A DNA stretch of 64,000 nt from an uncultured Aliarcobacter sp. GTDB lineage: Bacteria; Campylobacterota; Campylobacteria; Campylobacterales; Arcobacteraceae. Below the pieces are notes generated by a model. The model did not search any database. It was not told where the DNA came from and was given only the letters and a program-made list of their open reading frames with translations. Below are positions 1-13,982 of the stretch, piece by piece (position 1 is the first letter of the stretch; each line of letters starts with the position of its first letter). The translations under genes and the position numbers were made by a program. The stretch spans positions 1,632,001-1,696,000 of the forward strand of contig CAXXLV010000002.1 of NCBI GenBank assembly GCA_963664305.2. The letters run 5' to 3'.

Positions 1-1893
1 AAAGCTACTTTAGAAAATTTAATATCTGAACTAAAAAATGACATCTCAAATAAAGAGATACTTGAAGAACTTTCAAATACAAAAAATTATCTAGATAATC
101 AAAAATTCTCAATCGGAATTACTGGTGTTATGAATGCTGGTAAATCTACAATGCTTAACGCTCTAATGGGAAGAGAAATTCTTGGAAGTGCAGTTGTTCC
201 AGAAACTGCAAACTTAACAATTGTAAAACACAATCCAACTGATACAGCAAAAGTTTATTATTGGAATCAACAAGAGTGGGATAGAATTGTAAAATCAGCA
301 GAACAACTTGAATCAATGAAAGATTTTGTTAATGAAACAAATAAAATCTTTGGAGAGAATTTAAAAAACTATATAAGACCTGTTTCGAGATTTGATGAAG
401 TTGATATTAAAGATTTATCTTCATATACTTCAGCAGAAGCTAGCGGAAAAAAATGTAATCTTGTAAAATATGTAGAATTAGGTTCTCAACTTGATTTCTT
501 AAGTGATGGAATTGAAATAGTTGACACACCAGGACTTGATGACCCTGTTATTCAAAGAGAAGAGATAACAAAAGAGTATATCAGTCAATGTGATATGATG
601 TTACACCTAATGAATGTATCTCAAAGTGCAACTCTAAAAGATGTTGATTTTATCATTGATGCTGTTTTATATCAAAATATTTCAAAACTTTTAATTGTAA
701 TTACACGTGCAGATACAGTTACAAAAGAACAACTTGATGAAGTTATTAAATATACTAAATCATCAATTGAAAAACAGTTAAAAGCTCAAAATAAAGATTC
801 TCAATTAGATTACATATTAAAAACTATTAAATTCATTCCTATTTCTGGAAGAATGGCTCTATTACATAGAACTGGTCGAGCACAAGAGGCATTAGATGCT
901 GGATTTACTTTAGAGCAAACTGGTATTTTAGAAATTGAAAAATATTTAACTGAAACACTTTTTGGAACAAATTCTCAAAAAGGTGAACTTGTAATTCAAT
1001 CTTCTAAAAATCAATTACAAAAAATTATTGAGAAACAAACATCTTTTTACAACTATGAATTAAAACTTTTATCAAAATCAAAAGATGAATTAGAAAAAGA
1101 GCTAGAAGAGTTTAACAAGAAAAAAGCTGTAAATACAAGAATTTTCCAAGCAATGAGTGAAGATATTAATTTCTATAAAAATGATGCAAAATCATATATT
1201 GACTCACTTGAAACTTTTTTACAAAGTGAATTAATTGACTTACAAACAGTTATAAAACAAAGAGTTGTAAGTGATGTTAGATACTCTTTTGAAAAAACTA
1301 AAAAAAGACCAGAAAATAGTAGAATCAAAGTTATTGTTGAAACAGCAATAAAAGATGGAATTATTGATGTAATTAGAGATTATAGATATAAATTTATCAA
1401 AAAATCTCAAACTATTGGTGAGCAATGTGAACAAAAATACCATGATATGGGATTTACAATTGGTCATAAGAATGAGAACTTTGATGCAAGAGGATTTTTC
1501 CAAGATGACTTCAAATCAGGATTTTTAACTTCAAATAATGAAGTTTTAATTTCTCAAATAACTGAAGCTGTTTCAAAATCAAAAGAATCAAAAATAAATG
1601 AATTAGATAGAGAAATTGAAGGATTAATTTCAAATCAATTTACTTCTATTGAAGAAGATATAAAATCAAAAGCTAAAAAAGTTAGTACATTACTGATTGA
1701 TTCTTTCTTCAAAACTTTAAATGCTCCATTAAAATCATTTGAACAAAAACTTAAAAATGATGAAGAAACACTTCAAAATCAAATCAATTCATTTGAAGAA
1801 AATGACAAAAATAGAGCTCAATTATCAATTGATATACATAAAAACATTAAAAAACTTGAAAATATTTCAACAACTATTAAAGGATTATACTAA
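1..1893 (+). CDS. Dynamin-like GTPase (DLP1-type), 5' end lies before the window
   Basis: The frame is open from base 1 (KATLENL...FSIGITGVMNAGKST). P-loop GVMNAGKST, DTPG and TRAD G-motifs, followed by a long helical C-terminus. Confidence 0.85.
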   Translation, partial: KATLENLISELKNDISNKEILEELSNTKNYLDNQKFSIGITGVMNAGKSTMLNALMGREILGSAVVPETANLTIVKHNPTDTAKVYYWNQQEWDRIVKSAEQLESMKDFVNETNKIFGENLKNYIRPVSRFDEVDIKDLSSYTSAEASGKKCNLVKYVELGSQLDFLSDGIEIVDTPGLDDPVIQREEITKEYISQCDMMLHLMNVSQSATLKDVDFIIDAVLYQNISKLLIVITRADTVTKEQLDEVIKYTKSSIEKQLKAQNKDSQLDYILKTIKFIPISGRMALLHRTGRAQEALDAGFTLEQTGILEIEKYLTETLFGTNSQKGELVIQSSKNQLQKIIEKQTSFYNYELKLLSKSKDELEKELEEFNKKKAVNTRIFQAMSEDINFYKNDAKSYIDSLETFLQSELIDLQTVIKQRVVSDVRYSFEKTKKRPENSRIKVIVETAIKDGIIDVIRDYRYKFIKKSQTIGEQCEQKYHDMGFTIGHKNENFDARGFFQDDFKSGFLTSNNEVLISQITEAVSKSKESKINELDREIEGLISNQFTSIEEDIKSKAKKVSTLLIDSFFKTLNAPLKSFEQKLKNDEETLQNQINSFEENDKNRAQLSIDIHKNIKKLENISTTIKGLY

Positions 1894-3917
1894 TGAGTGC
1901 AAATCTAAATATCCTAAAAAGTTTTATTAACGAATACAAAGAAACATATAATATTGAAGAAATTGTTTATGATGAAGGTTTAGTAGGAGATATAAAAAAA
2001 GTTCAAGATAAACTTCTTGATGAAAAGTTTTTTCCATCAAACCAACTAAAAAATATTTTAAATAAACAAATTAGACGTGCACGTTATCCTATGGAAGTTG
2101 CAATTACTGGACAATTTTCTGCTGGTAAATCAACATTTTTAAATGCCCTTCTTTCAAGAAATATTTTACCAACAGGAATTACACCAGTTACTTCAAAAGT
2201 AAACTTTATAAATTATGGTGAAGAGTATAAACTAAAAATCACTTATCATTCAGGAGCTCAAGAGTTTGCTCCAATTGAATCAATAGCTGATTTTACAGAC
2301 CAAAGAGAACATGAGATGAAAGATATAAAATATCTTACACTTTATGCACCTATGGAAATTTTAAAAGATATCTCTTTTGTAGATACGCCAGGTCTTAACT
2401 CTCAATCTCAAAGTGATACAGAAACAACAAGAAAAGTTTTAAGAGATGTGGGTGGTATTATTTGGTTAACGCTTATTGATAATGCAGGAAAACTATCTGA
2501 AGCTGAAGTTTTAGAAGAGTATATGCAACACTTTAAAAATAAATCTTTATGTGTTTTAAATCAAAAAGATAAATTAACTCCAGAACAAGTTGAAACTACA
2601 ACAAAATATGTAAGTGAAAAATTCTCAAAATTCTTTGCTAAGGTTGTTCCAATTTCTGCAAGGATGGCACTTGAATCAAGAGCTCAACACAAAGATATTT
2701 TAATTGAAGATGAATATACAAAAATTGTAAGTCAATTTAAAAAAGATTTACTTGAAAAAAATGTTGATGATTTAGATTTCTTTGAAAATAGTTTTAAAGA
2801 GTACAAAAATAAAATTCACTCTATTCAAAACTCAGATGCAACAACAAATACAAAACTTTTAGAAGAATCAAATATTCAAGATGTATTAGATTTTATAAAT
2901 GACACAATTAGACCACAAGCAGCAGAAGCTAAAGAGTTTGCTATTAAAAAAGATTTAAAAGGTATTTGTGAAATTTTAGTAAAAGAGTATGAAACAATAA
3001 CTAAAGTTTACGATGCATTGATTGAAGTTTTAAAATCATGTGAACCAAAAGTAATTGAACATTTTGAAAATATTCATAAAAGATACTCTAAAGAACTATT
3101 TAATATCTATAACTCTTTAGAATCAATCATGGAAAAAATTGCCCATGAAACATATAAAAATATTAAAAAAAGAAAAGCTTTTAGATTTGAAGAATCGAAA
3201 GGTTTTTTAGGTGAAAAAATAGAAAAATTTGCTTATGAAACTTTCTGGATTGATTCAGACGCAGTTTATAAATCTTTATTTTATGATGACCAAACTGTAG
3301 ATAAAATGTTTAAAAGATCAATAAAACTTCTTAAAAATATCGAATTAAATACAGATGATGCCTTTAGAGAAGGTTATAATCTGATAAAAAATGAGGTTTC
3401 AAAATGGCAAGAGCCTTATGAATTAATTAGAAAACACAGAGAAATTGCATCTGATTTTGAATTTTCAAACACAAGACACTTTGCTGCTAAAGTACATGAA
3501 AATGTTTTAAAAGCTTATCAAACTGCAATTTTAGAAAATATTTCAGCTTTAAGAAAAAAATTCGCATACTTTAATGGAGCTTTATCATATTCATATATTC
3601 AAACAACTCAAGCAACTATTGCTCACTTTGAACAACAAATACATGAATCAGAAGAGTTATATAAAAAAGAGCCTTCAAGATTTTCGATTTCACATCCAAG
3701 AGAAGATGAAATTGTTGCAAAATTAAAAGCGAACTTTGGATTTGAGAAAATTGAAGATTTCTTAACTTCAAAAAGAAACTACTTATTTAAAATCATCAAG
3801 TATTCAAAAGAGCAATATCTTGAAATAAATGAAGATAGAATCAAATTTGTAACATCAAGAAAAGAACAATATCTTGATAAAATAAAAGATTTAGAGAAAA
3901 TAAAAGAGGAAATTTAA
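1893..3917 (+). CDS. Dynamin-like GTPase (DLP2-type)
   Basis: GQFSAGKST, LPTGITPVT, DTPG and NQKD motifs; TAATG overlap with the upstream DLP gene. Confidence 0.85.
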   Translation: MSANLNILKSFINEYKETYNIEEIVYDEGLVGDIKKVQDKLLDEKFFPSNQLKNILNKQIRRARYPMEVAITGQFSAGKSTFLNALLSRNILPTGITPVTSKVNFINYGEEYKLKITYHSGAQEFAPIESIADFTDQREHEMKDIKYLTLYAPMEILKDISFVDTPGLNSQSQSDTETTRKVLRDVGGIIWLTLIDNAGKLSEAEVLEEYMQHFKNKSLCVLNQKDKLTPEQVETTTKYVSEKFSKFFAKVVPISARMALESRAQHKDILIEDEYTKIVSQFKKDLLEKNVDDLDFFENSFKEYKNKIHSIQNSDATTNTKLLEESNIQDVLDFINDTIRPQAAEAKEFAIKKDLKGICEILVKEYETITKVYDALIEVLKSCEPKVIEHFENIHKRYSKELFNIYNSLESIMEKIAHETYKNIKKRKAFRFEESKGFLGEKIEKFAYETFWIDSDAVYKSLFYDDQTVDKMFKRSIKLLKNIELNTDDAFREGYNLIKNEVSKWQEPYELIRKHREIASDFEFSNTRHFAAKVHENVLKAYQTAILENISALRKKFAYFNGALSYSYIQTTQATIAHFEQQIHESEELYKKEPSRFSISHPREDEIVAKLKANFGFEKIEDFLTSKRNYLFKIIKYSKEQYLEINEDRIKFVTSRKEQYLDKIKDLEKIKEEI

Positions 3918-8934: not shown

Positions 8935-11064
8935 TCAATTATCTTTCGTTTCATTTGATAAATATTCATACAAATACAAATATTGTCTTAACTCTTTTAG
9001 GCTTTCAAGTTTAATTCCCTCTTCTATCCAAGCTTTAATATTTGAAGGAATTTCAAGTGGTTTTAATAACTCCTCTTTCTTCTTTTTTGAAATTTTTTCA
9101 TGTTCTGCTAATACTGAAATATGACCCAGAATTGAAGTTAATCCTAAATCTCTAATTTGTGCAATTTCTTCTACACTTTTTCCTTCATTTAAAAGTTCAT
9201 AAGTTTCAAGATATGTTTTTGTGAGTTTCTTTAATGGCTCTTTATTTTGTAATTTTTCTTTGTATTCTTCTTTTATCTCTTTAGATAAATTTAAAAAATC
9301 TTCTCCATATTTTTCATACTTTACAAGACCAACACCATTTATATTTAACATATCATCTTTTGTTATTGGAAGTTTTAAAGCAAACTCTTTTAAAGTCTTA
9401 TCACCAAAAATAACATAAGCTGGAACTTCATGTTCTAATGCAATCTCTTTTCGTAAAGTTCTAAATCTTTCGTAAATCAACTCATCAAAACTCAGTTCTG
9501 TTTCTTCCTCTTGGATTTTTGAAGCTACACCTAATTTATCACTATCTATAAAAAGTTTCTCTTTTCCTTTTAATATTTCTAATCCTAAAGAGCTTATTTT
9601 CAAAGCTCGAAATTCCCCTAAATTTAAAGCTTCTATATCTATTAATTTATCAGCAATTGCTATCCATTCATTTTTACTTTTATCAATTCCTAGATTATAA
9701 ACACTTAATTTATCATGTTCTAACTCTAAAAGTTTTTGATTTTTTGAACCCCTTAAAATATCTATGATGTGATTTAGTCCAAATCTTTGTTCACTTCTAT
9801 AAATAGCACTTAAAAGTTTTTGAGCATCAACACTTACATCTACAAGTTCAACTTCACCTTTTGTACAGTTATCACATAGAGTTTTACAAGCTTCAATCTC
9901 ATCTTCAAAATAACCTGCAATCATTTTATGACGACAATTATTACTCACACAATACCTATACATAAATTCCAATTTATCAAGGGCAGTTTGTTTGTATTCA
10001 TCATCAATAGCTTCTTCGATTTGTATTTTTCTTTTTACCTCATCACTTTTTGAATAAAGCATATAAACATAAGACATTTCACCATCACGCCCTGCCCGAC
10101 CGATTTCTTGATAGTAATTTTCAAGGGTTTTAGGTAAACTTGTATGTATTACAAAACGAATATTTGATTTATCAATTCCCATTCCAAAAGCGATGGTTGC
10201 TACTACAATATCTATTTTTTCATATACAAAATCATTAAAAACTTCATTTTTTCTGTCACTACTAAGCCCTGCATGATAGGCTTTTGCACTATATCCATTT
10301 TCACTCAAAAACTCTGCTGTTGATTCTGCTTCTTTTCTTGTAAAAGTGTAGATGATTCCACATAAACCTTTGTGAGTTTTTAAGAAGTTTAGTATTTGAG
10401 TTTTTCCGTTTGCTATTCGTGGTTCTACTTTTATATCAAGATTATCTCTTACAGTTTTTGCTCTAAAATGTTTTGGATTTTGTAAATTCAAAGATGAAGC
10501 AATATCAGCTTCAACTTTTTTTGTAGCAGTTGCAGTAAATGCACAAATTGAAGTATTTGGGAAAAATCTTTTTAGTCTATCAAGATTTCTATACTCAGCT
10601 CTAAACTCATGTCCCCAAGCAGATACACAATGGGCTTCATCTATTACAAAATAGTTTATATTTATTCGCTGTAAAACTGCTACGAATTCATTTGAAGTAA
10701 ATCTTTCAGGTGCAACATAGATAAATTTTAACTCCCCATTTAAAAGCTTTAGAAGAGTAAAACTATTTTCATCATTTGAAGTTGCTGAACTAATCATATC
10801 TGCACTAATATTTAAATCATTCAGAGCTTTTATCTGGTCTTGCATAAGTGCAATAAGAGGAGAAATTACAACAGTAGTTCCTTCCATAAGAAGAGTTGGA
10901 AGTTGATAACAAAGTGATTTTCCTCCACCTGTTGGCAAAATTGTCAAAACATCTTGTTTTGCAAGAATTGTATCAACAACTTCTTCTTGGAAAGAACGAA
11001 AAGTATCGTGTCCGAAAATATCTTTTAGTATTTGGTATTTTTTATTCATTTTGGATGGTAACAT
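8935..11064 (-). CDS. recQ: ATP-dependent DNA helicase RecQ (start may be the ATG at 11049)
   Basis: PTGGGKSLCYQ, DEAHCVSAWGHEFR, QEIGRAGRDG, plus RQC and HRDC (VPAYVIFGDKTL) domains. Confidence 0.95.
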   Translation of the reverse strand: MLPSKMNKKYQILKDIFGHDTFRSFQEEVVDTILAKQDVLTILPTGGGKSLCYQLPTLLMEGTTVVISPLIALMQDQIKALNDLNISADMISSATSNDENSFTLLKLLNGELKFIYVAPERFTSNEFVAVLQRININYFVIDEAHCVSAWGHEFRAEYRNLDRLKRFFPNTSICAFTATATKKVEADIASSLNLQNPKHFRAKTVRDNLDIKVEPRIANGKTQILNFLKTHKGLCGIIYTFTRKEAESTAEFLSENGYSAKAYHAGLSSDRKNEVFNDFVYEKIDIVVATIAFGMGIDKSNIRFVIHTSLPKTLENYYQEIGRAGRDGEMSYVYMLYSKSDEVKRKIQIEEAIDDEYKQTALDKLEFMYRYCVSNNCRHKMIAGYFEDEIEACKTLCDNCTKGEVELVDVSVDAQKLLSAIYRSEQRFGLNHIIDILRGSKNQKLLELEHDKLSVYNLGIDKSKNEWIAIADKLIDIEALNLGEFRALKISSLGLEILKGKEKLFIDSDKLGVASKIQEEETELSFDELIYERFRTLRKEIALEHEVPAYVIFGDKTLKEFALKLPITKDDMLNINGVGLVKYEKYGEDFLNLSKEIKEEYKEKLQNKEPLKKLTKTYLETYELLNEGKSVEEIAQIRDLGLTSILGHISVLAEHEKISKKKKEELLKPLEIPSNIKAWIEEGIKLESLKELRQYLYLYEYLSNETKDN

Positions 11065-11109
11065 AGTTTGAATAAGGGGTTAGTAAAAGGTATTTAGTTA
11101 TATTTATAA

Positions 11110-12447
11110 CTAATACATTTGAATATCCTTTTCCATTTCTTTAATACTTTTATAAATTAATTTATTAAATATATATTCAATTTCATTAGATTTGACATTT
11201 TTCAAATTAAAAATATCAATTAATATCTCTCTTTTTTCATCTTTTGTTAAATCTGAAAAATTTGGTATATATTTTGTATTTGTTCTATTTTTTAAAATCT
11301 CAAAATAAGTTCGAATAAATTTTTTAACTTCTTTTTTATCATATTCAATATTGAATTTTTTAAACATATTTAATATAAAAGTATCTAATCTAAATAAAAG
11401 AGTGGTGTCATTGATTTGAGAGAAAAAATATAACCAACCATATTTTTTACCTTCAAATTTACAACCAGTAATTTTTAAATTTAATTTCCAATATAAAAAA
11501 TTTATATTTTGTTCTTTTGAATGTTTATACTGTGTGAAAATATTTATTATTGATGTATGCAAGTTATCGATAGAAGATTTTCTAACTGATATTAAATTAT
11601 TACTATATGAATAACCTAGGAAATAAAAAGTATCACTTAAACTTCCTATCTCAGTTTTATCTTTACTTTTCCCTATTTCATGTATTTTTAAATCTAAATT
11701 ATTCATATCATTTTCTAACAATTTAAATACACTAAATGTATCTTGTTTATTACATAGAATTAATATATCATCAACATATCTAAAGTATTCATAGTTTATT
11801 TGGGAAGAATGTTTCTTGTCAAATTCTATAAAATAAATTGAAGCAAGTATATTTGATATTGATAGTCCTTGAGGTACACCTTTGTTATTAGAATATTTTT
11901 CAATATATCTATTACTTTTATTTACCGTTTCTTGTTTTATTGATTTGATTAATAAATCTGTAAATTGAATTTTTTTAGTTCTTTTATATAGAAATTTAAC
12001 TAATATTTCATGATTTATAGAGGGATAAAAATTTTCTATATCCGTTTTAATATAGCTATCAAATTTACCACTTTGAATACTTGTTTTTATTTTATTTATT
12101 TTTGAATGAATTAATTCATTTGTTAATTCCTCTTCAAATATCTCATTCAATGTATTAAAAATAATTTTTAGTACTATTTTATCTCTTATTGTAGGAATTG
12201 AAATTATTCTTGGAAATTTATTTTTACCTTTTGAAATTAATTTTTCTTTATAAAATGAAAAATTATATGTTTTATTCAAAATTTTCCTATTTATTAATTC
12301 AAACTCAGAATTTTGTTTTTTTTCATAACTTTTAATATTTATGCCATCAATTCCTATTGATGGCTTATTCTTAATAGTATCATCAAAAACTTTTTTTATA
12401 TTTTTTATTTTGATATTTTTATTAAATATCCTGAATGGATATTTCAT
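11110..12447 (-). CDS. Reverse transcriptase, DRT10/UG17-like defence-associated RT
   Basis: GIDG; PRIISIPTIRDKIV; motif A KTDIENFYPSINH; motif B GVPQGLSISNILASIY; motif C YFRYVDDILI (YVDD at 11767-11778); FLGY; C-terminal YGWLYFFSQIND. The RT call is firm; the subfamily is inferred from the SLATT and ncRNA context. Confidence 0.9.
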   Translation of the reverse strand: MKYPFRIFNKNIKIKNIKKVFDDTIKNKPSIGIDGINIKSYEKKQNSEFELINRKILNKTYNFSFYKEKLISKGKNKFPRIISIPTIRDKIVLKIIFNTLNEIFEEELTNELIHSKINKIKTSIQSGKFDSYIKTDIENFYPSINHEILVKFLYKRTKKIQFTDLLIKSIKQETVNKSNRYIEKYSNNKGVPQGLSISNILASIYFIEFDKKHSSQINYEYFRYVDDILILCNKQDTFSVFKLLENDMNNLDLKIHEIGKSKDKTEIGSLSDTFYFLGYSYSNNLISVRKSSIDNLHTSIINIFTQYKHSKEQNINFLYWKLNLKITGCKFEGKKYGWLYFFSQINDTTLLFRLDTFILNMFKKFNIEYDKKEVKKFIRTYFEILKNRTNTKYIPNFSDLTKDEKREILIDIFNLKNVKSNEIEYIFNKLIYKSIKEMEKDIQMY

Positions 12448-13007
12448 TGAAAAGATATACTTACAATTAAAATAATAACTGGAAGTATGACTAAAAAGAA
12501 AAGTGTAACAAAATCTCTAATTTTATACATCCATCTTTTTACACTTTTTTCAAATGTCCATTTTCCATTAATTTCTTCATACTTTTTTTGGTTTCTAACT
12601 TCATGCATTACTTGTAAATAATCATTTTCCGAATGATTTTCTGTTAAACTAATTATCATATTATATTGATTTTTCAAATCACTATAATCTTCTTTATTAT
12701 TTTCTTTTTTGAGAATATCATCATATAATTTTGCCATCAGTACATATGATGTTTGAAGTATCAAGGCTCTTTCTTTATAATTCATTGCAAAAATAAAAAT
12801 TGATACTATAACTATCAATATAGATAAAATTAATGTTAATATTTCAAAATTTATATTTTCACATTTAATATCAACAATAGTAATTGCAATTATAAAAAAA
12901 GAATAATATGCAATCAATATTTGAGAAATTAAATCATTTCTCTTAAATCTTTCAGAAGTATTAATTCTAGATTTTCTTGTTTTCCATACATTATCACTAA
13001 AAGCCAT
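12444..13007 (-). CDS. SLATT-domain membrane protein (SLATT_5-like), putative effector
   Basis: N-terminal WKTRKSRINTSERF followed by two hydrophobic helices, a helical soluble segment ending in ENHSENDY, and a C-terminal TM helix. AGGGA RBS; ATGA overlap with the RT gene. Confidence 0.75.
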   Translation of the reverse strand: MAFSDNVWKTRKSRINTSERFKRNDLISQILIAYYSFFIIAITIVDIKCENINFEILTLILSILIVIVSIFIFAMNYKERALILQTSYVLMAKLYDDILKKENNKEDYSDLKNQYNMIISLTENHSENDYLQVMHEVRNQKKYEEINGKWTFEKSVKRWMYKIRDFVTLFFLVILPVIILIVSISFQ

Positions 13008-13031
13008 ATAAAGTCCCTATTAAAGTTAAGA

Positions 13032-13159
13032 GTAAAGTTCCCAAAAAATTAGTTTAAAATGTCTTAAAATAAGACCTATAAATAAAATGTAAACATTTAT
13101 TAATTAGTTATGTTTCAAAAGTGAAACCTATCTTTTTGTAGAAAGATAAGGAACTTTAC
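13032..13159 (-). ncRNA. Putative RT-associated structured ncRNA (~128 nt)
   Basis: Perfect 10-bp terminal inverted repeat (gtaaagttcc 13032-13041 / ggaactttac 13150-13159) enclosing four hairpins, immediately upstream of SLATT-RT and just downstream of a TATAAT box. Confidence 0.75.
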
Positions 13160-13165
13160 ATGATT

Positions 13166-13171
13166 ATTATA
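13166..13171 (-). promoter_or_regulatory. Sigma70 -10 box for the ncRNA-SLATT-RT transcript
   Basis: TATAAT on the minus strand, 6 nt before the first G (13159) of the ncRNA terminal stem. The region is AT-rich, so a chance match is possible. Confidence 0.55.
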
Positions 13172-13310
13172 TTTTAAAACTAATAATAATTAAATAAAAA
13201 TTATTTTTATATCTAAAGTTTTATTTAATCAATTTTTTAAATAAAGTGAAAATACTAATTTTATTATTTATGATATATATCGAGAATGCAAAAACACCCT
13301 CAATATAAAA

Positions 13311-13913
13311 TTATTGTCTTTGTTTCATTTGATGATTTAAGAACTCTTCTTTACTAATATTTCCATCTTTATTAGTATCTATATCTGAAAATGATGGTTG
13401 ATTATCAATATTTTTCATCATTCTTCCTTCAGATAGTTTTTCTTCCATTCTTTTCTCTCTAGCTTCTTCCATCTCTTTAGTACTAATCATTCCATCATGA
13501 TTCATGTCATAATTTTCAAAACTTGGCATATTAAAATGTTGTCCCATTCCTTGACCCATCATACCTTGCCCAAAGCCTTTGTTTCCTTGATTAAGTTGCA
13601 TTTGTTTATTTTGACCTTTTAATAACTCTATTTCAGTCAATTTTCCATCTTTATTTGTATCAAACATACTAAAATCTGGAGCATTATCTATATTTCTCAT
13701 AGGCATTCCTGCTTCTTGTTTTTGCTCCATTCTTTGTAGTCTAATATCATTGAACTCTTTTTCACTTACAAATCCATCTTTATTTGTATCATAAGTTGAG
13801 AATTCTATCGGACCTCGATTTGATATATCTTCTGCATTAACAGTGCTTATCATAATAGATAAAGAACTAGCAACAACTAAACCTAATTTAACTGTTCGTG
13901 ATAAATTTTTCAT
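13311..13913 (-). CDS. Secreted EF-hand repeat protein
   Basis: Four DxNxDG loops (DTNKDGFVS, DTNKDGKLT, DMNHDGMIS, DTNKDGNIS); signal peptide ending VNA-E; an AGGA RBS supports the ATG at 13913. Confidence 0.8.
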   Translation of the reverse strand: MKNLSRTVKLGLVVASSLSIMISTVNAEDISNRGPIEFSTYDTNKDGFVSEKEFNDIRLQRMEQKQEAGMPMRNIDNAPDFSMFDTNKDGKLTEIELLKGQNKQMQLNQGNKGFGQGMMGQGMGQHFNMPSFENYDMNHDGMISTKEMEEAREKRMEEKLSEGRMMKNIDNQPSFSDIDTNKDGNISKEEFLNHQMKQRQ

Positions 13914-13982
13914 TATCTCATCCTTTTTATTTAGATGATTCATTCTACTCTTTATTTAATATAATTACCATAACTTAATTTA

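Follow-up and report, generated by a model that had tools for sequence, protein, structure and literature searches.

The combination of a reverse transcriptase (RT) of the UG17 group with a SLATT_5 protein has been named DRT10 (Tang et al. 2025, PMC12632851; Sanchez-Nieto et al. 2026, bioRxiv 10.64898/2026.04.29.721553), a subject on which a further report (Chen et al. 2026, bioRxiv 10.64898/2026.10.08.757509) and another paper on the topic (Mestre et al. 2022, PMC9226505) are available. The E. coli DRT10 ncRNA, which is 137 to 143 nt long and encoded just upstream of the SLATT gene, binds the RT and is needed for defence (PMC12632851; 10.64898/2026.04.29.721553; Ramirez et al. 2026, bioRxiv 10.64898/2026.06.29.735271). 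Tang et al. depict it as a central stem with four smaller stem-loops (PMC12632851), and according to Ramirez et al. it scaffolds two RT protomers (2:1 RT:ncRNA) in a pseudo-symmetric arrangement with two single-stranded loops, A and B (10.64898/2026.06.29.735271). Loop B contains a short A-B-A' template downstream of a boundary stem-loop (PMC12632851; 10.64898/2026.06.29.735271), and loop A of Eco3DRT10 yields only short abortive cDNA (10.64898/2026.06.29.735271). The RT primes on its own C-terminal serine or tyrosine, Tyr444 in the case of Eco1DRT10, to which it adds kilobases of 7-9-nt tandem repeats (PMC12632851; 10.64898/2026.06.29.735271). The flanking stems serve as the reference by which the template window is measured, and Eco3DRT10 shows linker requirements as well as a preference for purines (10.64898/2026.06.29.735271). 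For the system of Escherichia sp. E3659 the template ACUUAUUACU and the resulting AGTAATA repeat were shown experimentally, and no poly-dA is reported to have been found (10.64898/2026.04.29.721553).

The window analysed here, a stretch of 64,000 nucleotides from an uncultured Aliarcobacter sp., harbours a locus which resembles these systems. As in Eco1-, Eco2- and Eco3DRT10, an RNA element is situated just upstream of the genes for SLATT and the RT and on the same strand, its length being 128 nt compared to 137 nt. A basal stem joining the two ends encloses four hairpins arranged in halves which resemble each other at the level of sequence and secondary structure, and the predicted template loop, which carries an A-B-A' repeat, extends from the last hairpin to the basal stem, again as in the Eco DRT10 RNAs. 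The single-stranded loops comprise 14 and 19 nt (12 and 19 nt in Eco3), and the RT ends in a tyrosine as does that of Eco1. With the UG17-A system of E3659, in which the basal stem SL1 is essential, the locus shares both the order ncRNA-SLATT-RT and the overlap of the SLATT stop with the RT start codon. Differences are likewise evident. No similarity in RNA sequence to the Eco DRT10 RNAs was detected, as the covariance model R1 described below misses the Eco3-like loci L062-L079. Around loop A the hairpins are distributed as 2 + 2, in contrast to 1 + 3 in Eco3 and 2 + 3 in Eco1; moreover, the RNA is of very low GC content (22%) and its predicted repeat unit amounts to 5 nt instead of 7-9 nt. 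For the E3659 RNA, in turn, a length of 143 nt is given and six stem-loops are predicted, and the window's own loop B has diverged to UAAAC/UAA. While the main hosts of the three UG17 subtypes are given as Pseudomonadota, Bacteroidota and Bacillota (10.64898/2026.04.29.721553), the relatives of the window locus stem from Campylobacterota MAGs.

More remote parallels exist with DRT9 (UG28) and DRT2 (UG2), which also combine a Class 2 UG RT with an upstream structured ncRNA whose internal template is read repeatedly. Unlike the window locus with its UG17 RT, however, DRT9 converts a conserved poly-U into poly-dA and DRT2 copies a long template in rolling-circle fashion. Tang et al. draw an analogy to telomerase RNA (PMC12632851), which likewise features a short internal template, repeat synthesis by realignment and a template-boundary helix on the 5' side. 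In contrast to telomerase, a DRT10 system would be protein-primed rather than acting on a chromosome end, would use one RNA with two RTs and would serve defence instead of end maintenance.

The element and its operon

The first-pass annotation had described, from the letters of the window, a minus-strand RNA consisting of a 10-bp closing stem around four hairpins; its sequence and all five helices agree with the letters at the + strand positions assigned to them. The features of the locus are compiled in Table 1, where RNA position p corresponds to 13160 - p in window coordinates.

Table 1. Coordinates of the element, its parts and the surrounding cassette in the window
Feature	Position	Strand	Remarks
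Probable DRT10-type ncRNA, 128 nt	13032..13159	-	Fold, covariation in nine sequences, model R1
Basal stem SL1, 5' arm	13150..13159	-	10 pairs, formed with 13032-13041
Hairpin 1, RNA 12-31	13129..13148	-	7 pairs, 98.4% paired, 5 double-sided changes
Hairpin 2, RNA 33-48	13112..13127	-	6 pairs, 98.1% paired, 2 double-sided changes; preceded by AUAGG motif
Loop A, RNA 49-62, AUAACUAAUUAAUA	13098..13111	-	Most conserved stretch
Hairpin 3, RNA 59-79	13081..13101	-	Inner 4-5 pairs solid, outer pairs weak
Hairpin 4, RNA 85-99	13061..13075	-	6 pairs, 81.5% paired, 2 double-sided changes; preceded by second AUAGG
Loop B, RNA 100-118, AUUUUAAACUAAUUUUUUG, predicted template loop	13042..13060	-	A-B-A' repeats
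Predicted template UAAAC, 13052-13056 (U104-C108), and A' UAA, 13049-13051 (U109-A111)	13049..13056	-	Shared frame
-10-like hexamer TATAAT	13166..13171	-	6 nt before the RNA's first G
SLATT_5 two-TM effector gene, 187 aa	12444..13007	-	Pfam PF18160 2.3e-29, residues 4-181; PADLOC RTasSLATT 3.2e-44
UG17 (DRT10) reverse transcriptase gene, 445 aa	11110..12447	-	PADLOC RT_UG17 6e-153; Pfam RVT_1 4.2e-19
Whole cassette (promoter, ncRNA, SLATT, RT), 2,205 nt	11072..13276		Between recQ and the EF-hand protein gene

The minimum free energy fold of the 128-nt RNA reproduces the closing stem, lengthened by one G-U pair, around four hairpins, of which hairpins 1, 2 and 4 are as formerly described and hairpin 3 is confined to its inner five pairs. 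With -28.4 kcal/mol this fold is considerably more stable than those of dinucleotide-shuffled sequences (-14.42 ± 2.95 kcal/mol; n = 200; z = -4.74), none of which is as good, so that the proposed structure withstands this comparison. Since the complementary strand folds equally well (z = -5.01), energy alone does not discriminate between the strands. Open reading frames of at least 20 aa overlapping 13032-13159 were not found. Rfam 15, searched with permissive thresholds between 10000 and 16000, yields no match on the element, and its four matches elsewhere in this segment are chance-level hits to snoRNA or plastid families (E 2.3-7.8). As judged by a search with model R1, the element is present as a single copy in the genome.

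A distance of 24 nt separates the element from the start codon of SLATT, the first gene of the RT operon, which is encoded on the same strand and overlaps the RT gene by 4 nt, its stop codon running into the RT start codon. The match of the RT to the RT_UG17 model extends over positions 5-427 of 429. All five aligned RTs share the YVDD sequence of the catalytic motif (residues 224-227) as well as Tyr445 at the C-terminus, and the invariance of the latter fits priming from the C-terminal tyrosine as in Eco1DRT10 (Y444).

With the exception of L006, all of the nine sequences considered below possess a hexamer of the form TAnnnT 5-6 nt ahead of the basal stem's first G, and this conserved -10-like box suggests that the RNA starts at the stem. 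A generic sigma-70 scan, returning 21 promoter-like sites compared to 26.4 ± 5.3 in shuffles, is uninformative due to the AT-richness of the DNA. The terminator scan reveals none between RNA and SLATT, its sole candidate site being located within the RT gene and on the wrong strand. Hence, the 3' end would result from processing or read-through, and the RNA could be a processed leader rather than a separate transcript. Twelve public runs are listed. Two of them, of unspecified kind, contain the whole stretch, and the nine recorded or guessed as RNA contain only a fraction of 0.06-0.18 of the sampled words; these runs provide no evidence of expression or habitat.

Covariation among the relatives of the locus

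A protein-guided search of species genomes gave three close loci, from a Sulfurimonas MAG (L001, RT 72% identical to that of the window), an Arcobacteraceae MAG (L002, 72%) and a Sulfurimonadaceae MAG (L003, 63%), to which an order-wide family search added L006 (60%). The same type of search in metagenomes yielded 46 loci. Four of these (L037, L038, L040 and L041; RT identity 62-69%) belong to the clade of the window, and the 40 loci L042-L081 are distant (32-44%). As L039 equals L002 over the 400 nt compared, the two were counted once, and neither L004 (RT 25% identical) nor L036 (94% identical, its contig beginning inside SLATT) could supply an upstream region. An open reading frame of at least 110 aa which ends no more than 120 nt from the projected RT start is present in 47 of 50 loci; in the other three the RT start lies at or very near the edge of the contig.

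The window sequence and its eight relatives were aligned with MAFFT, i.e. blind to structure (alignment A3), and the 37 base pairs proposed by the first-pass annotation were laid on top. These pairs are retained in the eight relatives: 92.5% of the 333 cells are paired (85.1 ± 0.9 in shuffles; 36.5-54.1% if the partners are slid against each other), and 17 of the 37 pairs have changed on both sides (6.9 ± 1.7 in shuffles, none of 500 reaching 17), although these shuffle statistics overstate independence as the nine sequences are related. RNAalifold, applied to the nine sequences, likewise arrives at 37 pairs, 16 of them with compensatory changes, and individual folding recovers the five-helix shape in each of the nine clade members.

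Compensatory changes are present in all helices with the exception of the outer segment of hairpin 3. Pairing reaches 94-99% in the closing stem, in hairpins 1 and 2 and in the inner helix of hairpin 3, each of which contains two to six covarying pairs. Nine of the ten basal pairs form one helix in the alignment, 98.8% paired and with six pairs changed on both sides, the tenth pair reaching 88.9%; in L006 the sequence of this stem is wholly different, yet its pairing is kept. Within hairpin 3 the inner helix is 94.4% paired with two pairs changed on both sides, whereas the outer part (A59-U61 with A77-U79, plus A62-U75) attains 75% with zero covariation and constitutes the sole weak spot of the structure. 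As to the unpaired regions, loop A measures 13-14 nt in all nine sequences and the segment between hairpins 2 and 3 contains the invariant ACUAAUUAA; loop B is unpaired in all nine folds and varies between 16 and 22 nt. The sequence AGGUUU at hairpin 2 is invariant in all nine members, and AUAGG is nearly invariant ahead of hairpin 2 and again ahead of hairpin 4.

This recurrence of AUAGG is part of a more extended internal repeat. The half AUAGG-hairpin 2-AU..AACUAAUU can be aligned with the half AUAGG-hairpin 4-AUUUUAAACUAAUU, the pattern common to both being AUAGG-hairpin-ACAUAA..ACUAAUU. For the window the alignment of the halves scores 31, compared to 18.4 ± 3.3 in shuffled halves of which none of 500 reaches 31. 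Across the clade, at most 31 of 500 shuffles match the score in eight of the nine sequences; the ninth, L040, fails, its half-molecule having been miscut by the script. Such a repeat at the level of sequence and secondary structure fits the pseudo-symmetric ncRNA of the cryo-EM work, and by analogy to the published fold we infer that the two halves carry the equivalents of Loop A and Loop B, loop A being assigned by its position.

A covariance model built from the nine clade sequences (R1) scores them with 83-127 bits on the operon strand, the window with 119 bits, whereas the three matches which it returns on the opposite strand, at elements of relatives, reach merely 19.2-19.5 bits. This difference, to which the G-U pairs contribute, settles the strand. 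Applied to 51 sources (245,708 bases), R1 recovers only its nine source sequences; below E 0.01, it matches none of the 40 loci with distant UG17 RTs and nothing in eight loci of the same genus. Its failure on the distant loci agrees with the remark by Sanchez-Nieto et al. that their models work within subtypes only (10.64898/2026.04.29.721553), and it implies that the tie to the E. coli RNAs consists in architecture and context rather than in homology of RNA sequence. The distant loci have upstream RNAs of their own, 18 of which cluster together. Seven distant loci carry CAAYGAUUCCAAU, in which the template of Eco3DRT10, complementary in reverse to the published GAATCATTG repeat, is succeeded by its A' segment, and the upstream RNA of L066 adopts a fold comprising a basal stem as well as inner hairpins.

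Within the order, a PADLOC search with the RT_UG17 family identified matches at E ≤ 1e-30 in 31 of 401 genomes, of which only two (G000 and G131) contain a full-length match (about 1e-152 to 1e-154). The matches in the other 29 genomes (1e-31 to 1e-48), mostly partial and within longer open frames, presumably represent other kinds of RT. One locus of the same genus (L089, G402:C1:221400-226400) encodes, in ORF 1881-3089, a shorter UG17-type RT of 402 aa (RT_UG17 5.8e-117) whose gene is 66% identical in DNA sequence to the RT gene of the window. R1 has no match there, and the SLATT family is absent among the three neighbouring ORFs scanned. Its neighbours are an upstream gene for an endonuclease-domain protein, a 126-aa ORF without assigned family and a gene for a MYG1-like protein, with a gap of 870 nt upstream of the RT. 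Among 14 named control genomes, the RT_UG17 model matches two, those of Bacteroides thetaiotaomicron and Methanosarcina acetivorans, which are candidate UG17 RTs only.

Loop B and its predicted template

Within loop B, all nine sequences contain a direct repeat of at least 3 nt in one shared A-B-A' frame comprising six different templates, a pattern which is to be read against the 9-24% rate at which in-frame A-B-A' repeats arise by chance in shuffled, AU-rich loops, where they are common. This repeat starts 3-5 nt past hairpin 4, with 5-6 nt left between its end and the basal stem. Written as template/A', it holds UUAUUAC/UUAU(U) in L001, L003, L038 and L041, UUAUAC/UUAU in L002, UAUUAC/UAU in L006, CUUA/CUUA in L037, UAAUC/UAAU in L040 and UAAAC/UAA in the window. 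The heptamer UUAUUAC is a cyclic permutation of the 7-nt unit of E3659 (template ACUUAUUACU, ACUUAUU/AGTAATA). Thus, the clade keeps the A-B-A' frame and changes the template, with units of 4, 5, 6 and 7 nt. That the frame is kept while the template varies provides support from natural variation for the published idea that the distance to the flanking stems, rather than the sequence, defines the template.

In the window, UAAAC/UAA starts 4 nt past hairpin 4, stops 6 nt ahead of the basal stem and is the only in-frame A-B-A' of loop B. By comparison with SL5 of Eco3DRT10, hairpin 4 is predicted to be the stem which bounds the template on its 5' side. We slightly favour the prediction that UAAAC is copied into a 5'-GTTTA-3' repeat, (GTTTA)n, with a unit of 5 nt. 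A start opposite U109 would use dATP and would agree with the purine preference of Eco3, which is a weak argument. A competing unit of 11 nt within the same loop, AUUUU-AAACUA-AUUUU, would give the product (TAGTTTAAAAT)n. It leaves no 5' linker and a 3' linker of 2 nt, and we regard it as distinctly less probable, although not negligible, because it is out of the family frame and conflicts with the linker requirements shown for Eco3.

The octamer AACUAAUU is present in both loops of the window RNA, and loop A possesses repeats of its own, UAAC/UAA and UAAU/UAAU. Across the clade the tandem UAAU/UAAU of loop A is invariant and UAAC/UAA occurs in five of the nine sequences. The shared octamer together with the repeats of loop A raises the question of whether both RT protomers might make repeat DNA, in contrast to Eco3DRT10 where one is productive and the other abortive. 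Following this line, the Campylobacterota RNAs would form a separate DRT10 ncRNA sub-family missed by a published model set and characterised by very short units (4-7 nt, 5 nt here), with both protomers perhaps producing repeat DNA; we consider this rather unlikely.

Assignment of the element and its genomic surroundings

The best explanation of these observations, to which we assign a probability of roughly 0.9, is that the element represents the ncRNA of a DRT10 anti-phage system (UG17 RT plus SLATT_5), serving as scaffold and template. The earlier reading of the element as scaffold and template RNA of the RT is thus supported by its position, strand, architecture and covariation, by the pseudo-symmetry of its two loops at the level of sequence and secondary structure and by the A-B-A' repeat of the 3' loop. 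That the window RNA binds the RT and is copied by it is suggested by homology, and what is said here on binding to the RT, priming by protein, synthesis of repeats and activation of SLATT is carried over from the literature on the E. coli homologues. Accepting this analogy, the RNA would probably possess a -10 promoter of its own, with transcription beginning at the basal stem's first G or close to it, and this stem would keep the fold together. One RT protomer would dock on each half-molecule, the one consisting of hairpin 1-AUAGG-hairpin 2-loop A and the other of hairpin 3-AUAGG-hairpin 4-loop B. With its own C-terminal tyrosine as primer, the protomer at loop B would copy a short template beginning at a fixed distance 3' of hairpin 4, whereupon the cDNA end would unpair and re-anneal to A', the downstream copy of the template's first bases. 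Repetition of this cycle would give rise to long single-stranded tandem-repeat DNA. This DNA, or its change upon infection, would presumably activate the SLATT membrane protein and thereby lead to abortive infection.

Several other readings were weighed against a DRT10 ncRNA. The location of the element 24 nt ahead of the SLATT start without an intervening terminator, which might entail co-transcription with the operon, would also befit a structured 5' leader regulating translation or stability of the SLATT-RT mRNA solely in cis, neither bound nor copied by the RT. Yet, the ribosome-binding site of SLATT lies outside the fold, the A-B-A' frame persists while the template sequence changes, and the five-helix, two-loop, pseudo-symmetric design is that of RNAs shown to bind and template UG17 RTs, so that such a purely regulatory role is very unlikely. 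Extremely improbable is a retron msr-msd RNA, in which the inverted repeats a1/a2 at its flanks would prime the synthesis of msDNA, using the 2'-OH of a branching G. In line with it are the inverted repeat at the termini, which encloses hairpins, and an adjoining RT gene; however, the best family for the RT is UG17 (6e-153), none of the retron RT models being near it, the accessory gene encodes SLATT_5 as is typical of DRT10, and the RNA exhibits single-stranded loops of 14 and 19 nt instead of a long msd stem as well as no Rfam match.

Loop B of the window ends in six uridines (U112-U117), as does that of L040, and Tang et al. note a resemblance between the DRT9 and DRT10 ncRNAs (PMC12632851), which would accord with a DRT9-like RNA whose U-run templates poly-dA in place of a repeat of mixed sequence. 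Against this, which we judge highly improbable, stand the affiliation of the RT with UG17, the PADLOC Drt9 model being outside the best 25 families listed, the interruption or absence of the U-run in seven of the nine clade members, only two having it, and the lack of poly-dA reported for the tested DRT10 of E3659 (10.64898/2026.04.29.721553). Finally, a GC content of 22% and the ability of both strands to fold well might suggest that AT-rich DNA between genes folds in this way by chance, or that the closing stem derives from terminal inverted repeats of a mobile element. The chances of this are practically negligible in view of the 200 shuffles none of which folds as well and of the compensatory changes including the fully rewritten basal stem of L006; in addition, the cassette ends (11072 and 13276) do not coincide with the stem arms and have no terminal repeats.

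The assignment to DRT10 leaves the current picture of these systems unchanged and the kind of element is already known. What is new is modest: a member from a sequence-divergent Campylobacterota clade for which the survey of Tang et al. recorded no such RNA. Table S1 of that survey (PMC12632851) enters the two Campylobacterota loci identified in it, Aliarcobacter butzleri and Sulfurimonas sp. NZ_MIBZ01000043, our relative L001, with SLATT associated = 1 and ncRNA associated = 0, and the rows neighbouring those two (its first two) carry ncRNA = 1. The locus id of L001 has no second entry in Tables S1-S3 as examined, including those on ncRNA and A-B-A'. The clade may be covered in supplements of the papers available from bioRxiv only. 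For a DRT10 clade without a recorded ncRNA in the published survey, the present analysis contributes a seed alignment of nine sequences together with a model, and it illustrates that a reader of the bare sequence can spot the partner RNA of an RT.

The cassette is small (2.2 kb), self-contained and cleanly delimited as an insertion, which makes it an easy test system. Its GC content amounts to 18-22% compared to 27-32% in the flanks, and convincing terminal direct or inverted repeats were not found at its ends. A genome of the same genus (G418, locus L088) has the same flanks, 87-90% identical to those of the window, only 24 nt apart. The DRT10 system is, judging from this sequence comparison, a 2.2-kb low-GC insertion at the junction of recQ and the EF-hand gene. 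This junction varies within the genus, comprising 24 nt in G418 and the 2.2-kb DRT10 cassette in the window. In G413 (L090) the same junction holds about 2.3 kb encoding a sigma-70-region-2 protein, a 106-aa ORF without family match and an AraC/GyrI-like regulator; PADLOC gave no match for these three genes.

The gene which immediately follows the cassette on its downstream side, at 8935-11064 on the minus strand, encodes a RecQ helicase of full length with the domains DEAD, Helicase_C, RecQ_Zn_bind, RQC, HRDC and HTH_40. It also attains a very high score with the PADLOC DpdF models (2.6e-193). As it is conserved at the same place in genomes of the same genus (82-90% DNA identity), it looks like a housekeeping recQ and not like a defence gene. 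Upstream of the element, at 13311-13943 on the minus strand, lies the gene for a 210-aa protein with four EF-hand calcium-binding motifs and a hydrophobic N-terminus which is a putative signal peptide. The adjoining gene encodes a 430-aa protein which, judging from its C-terminus, may resemble an L,D-transpeptidase.
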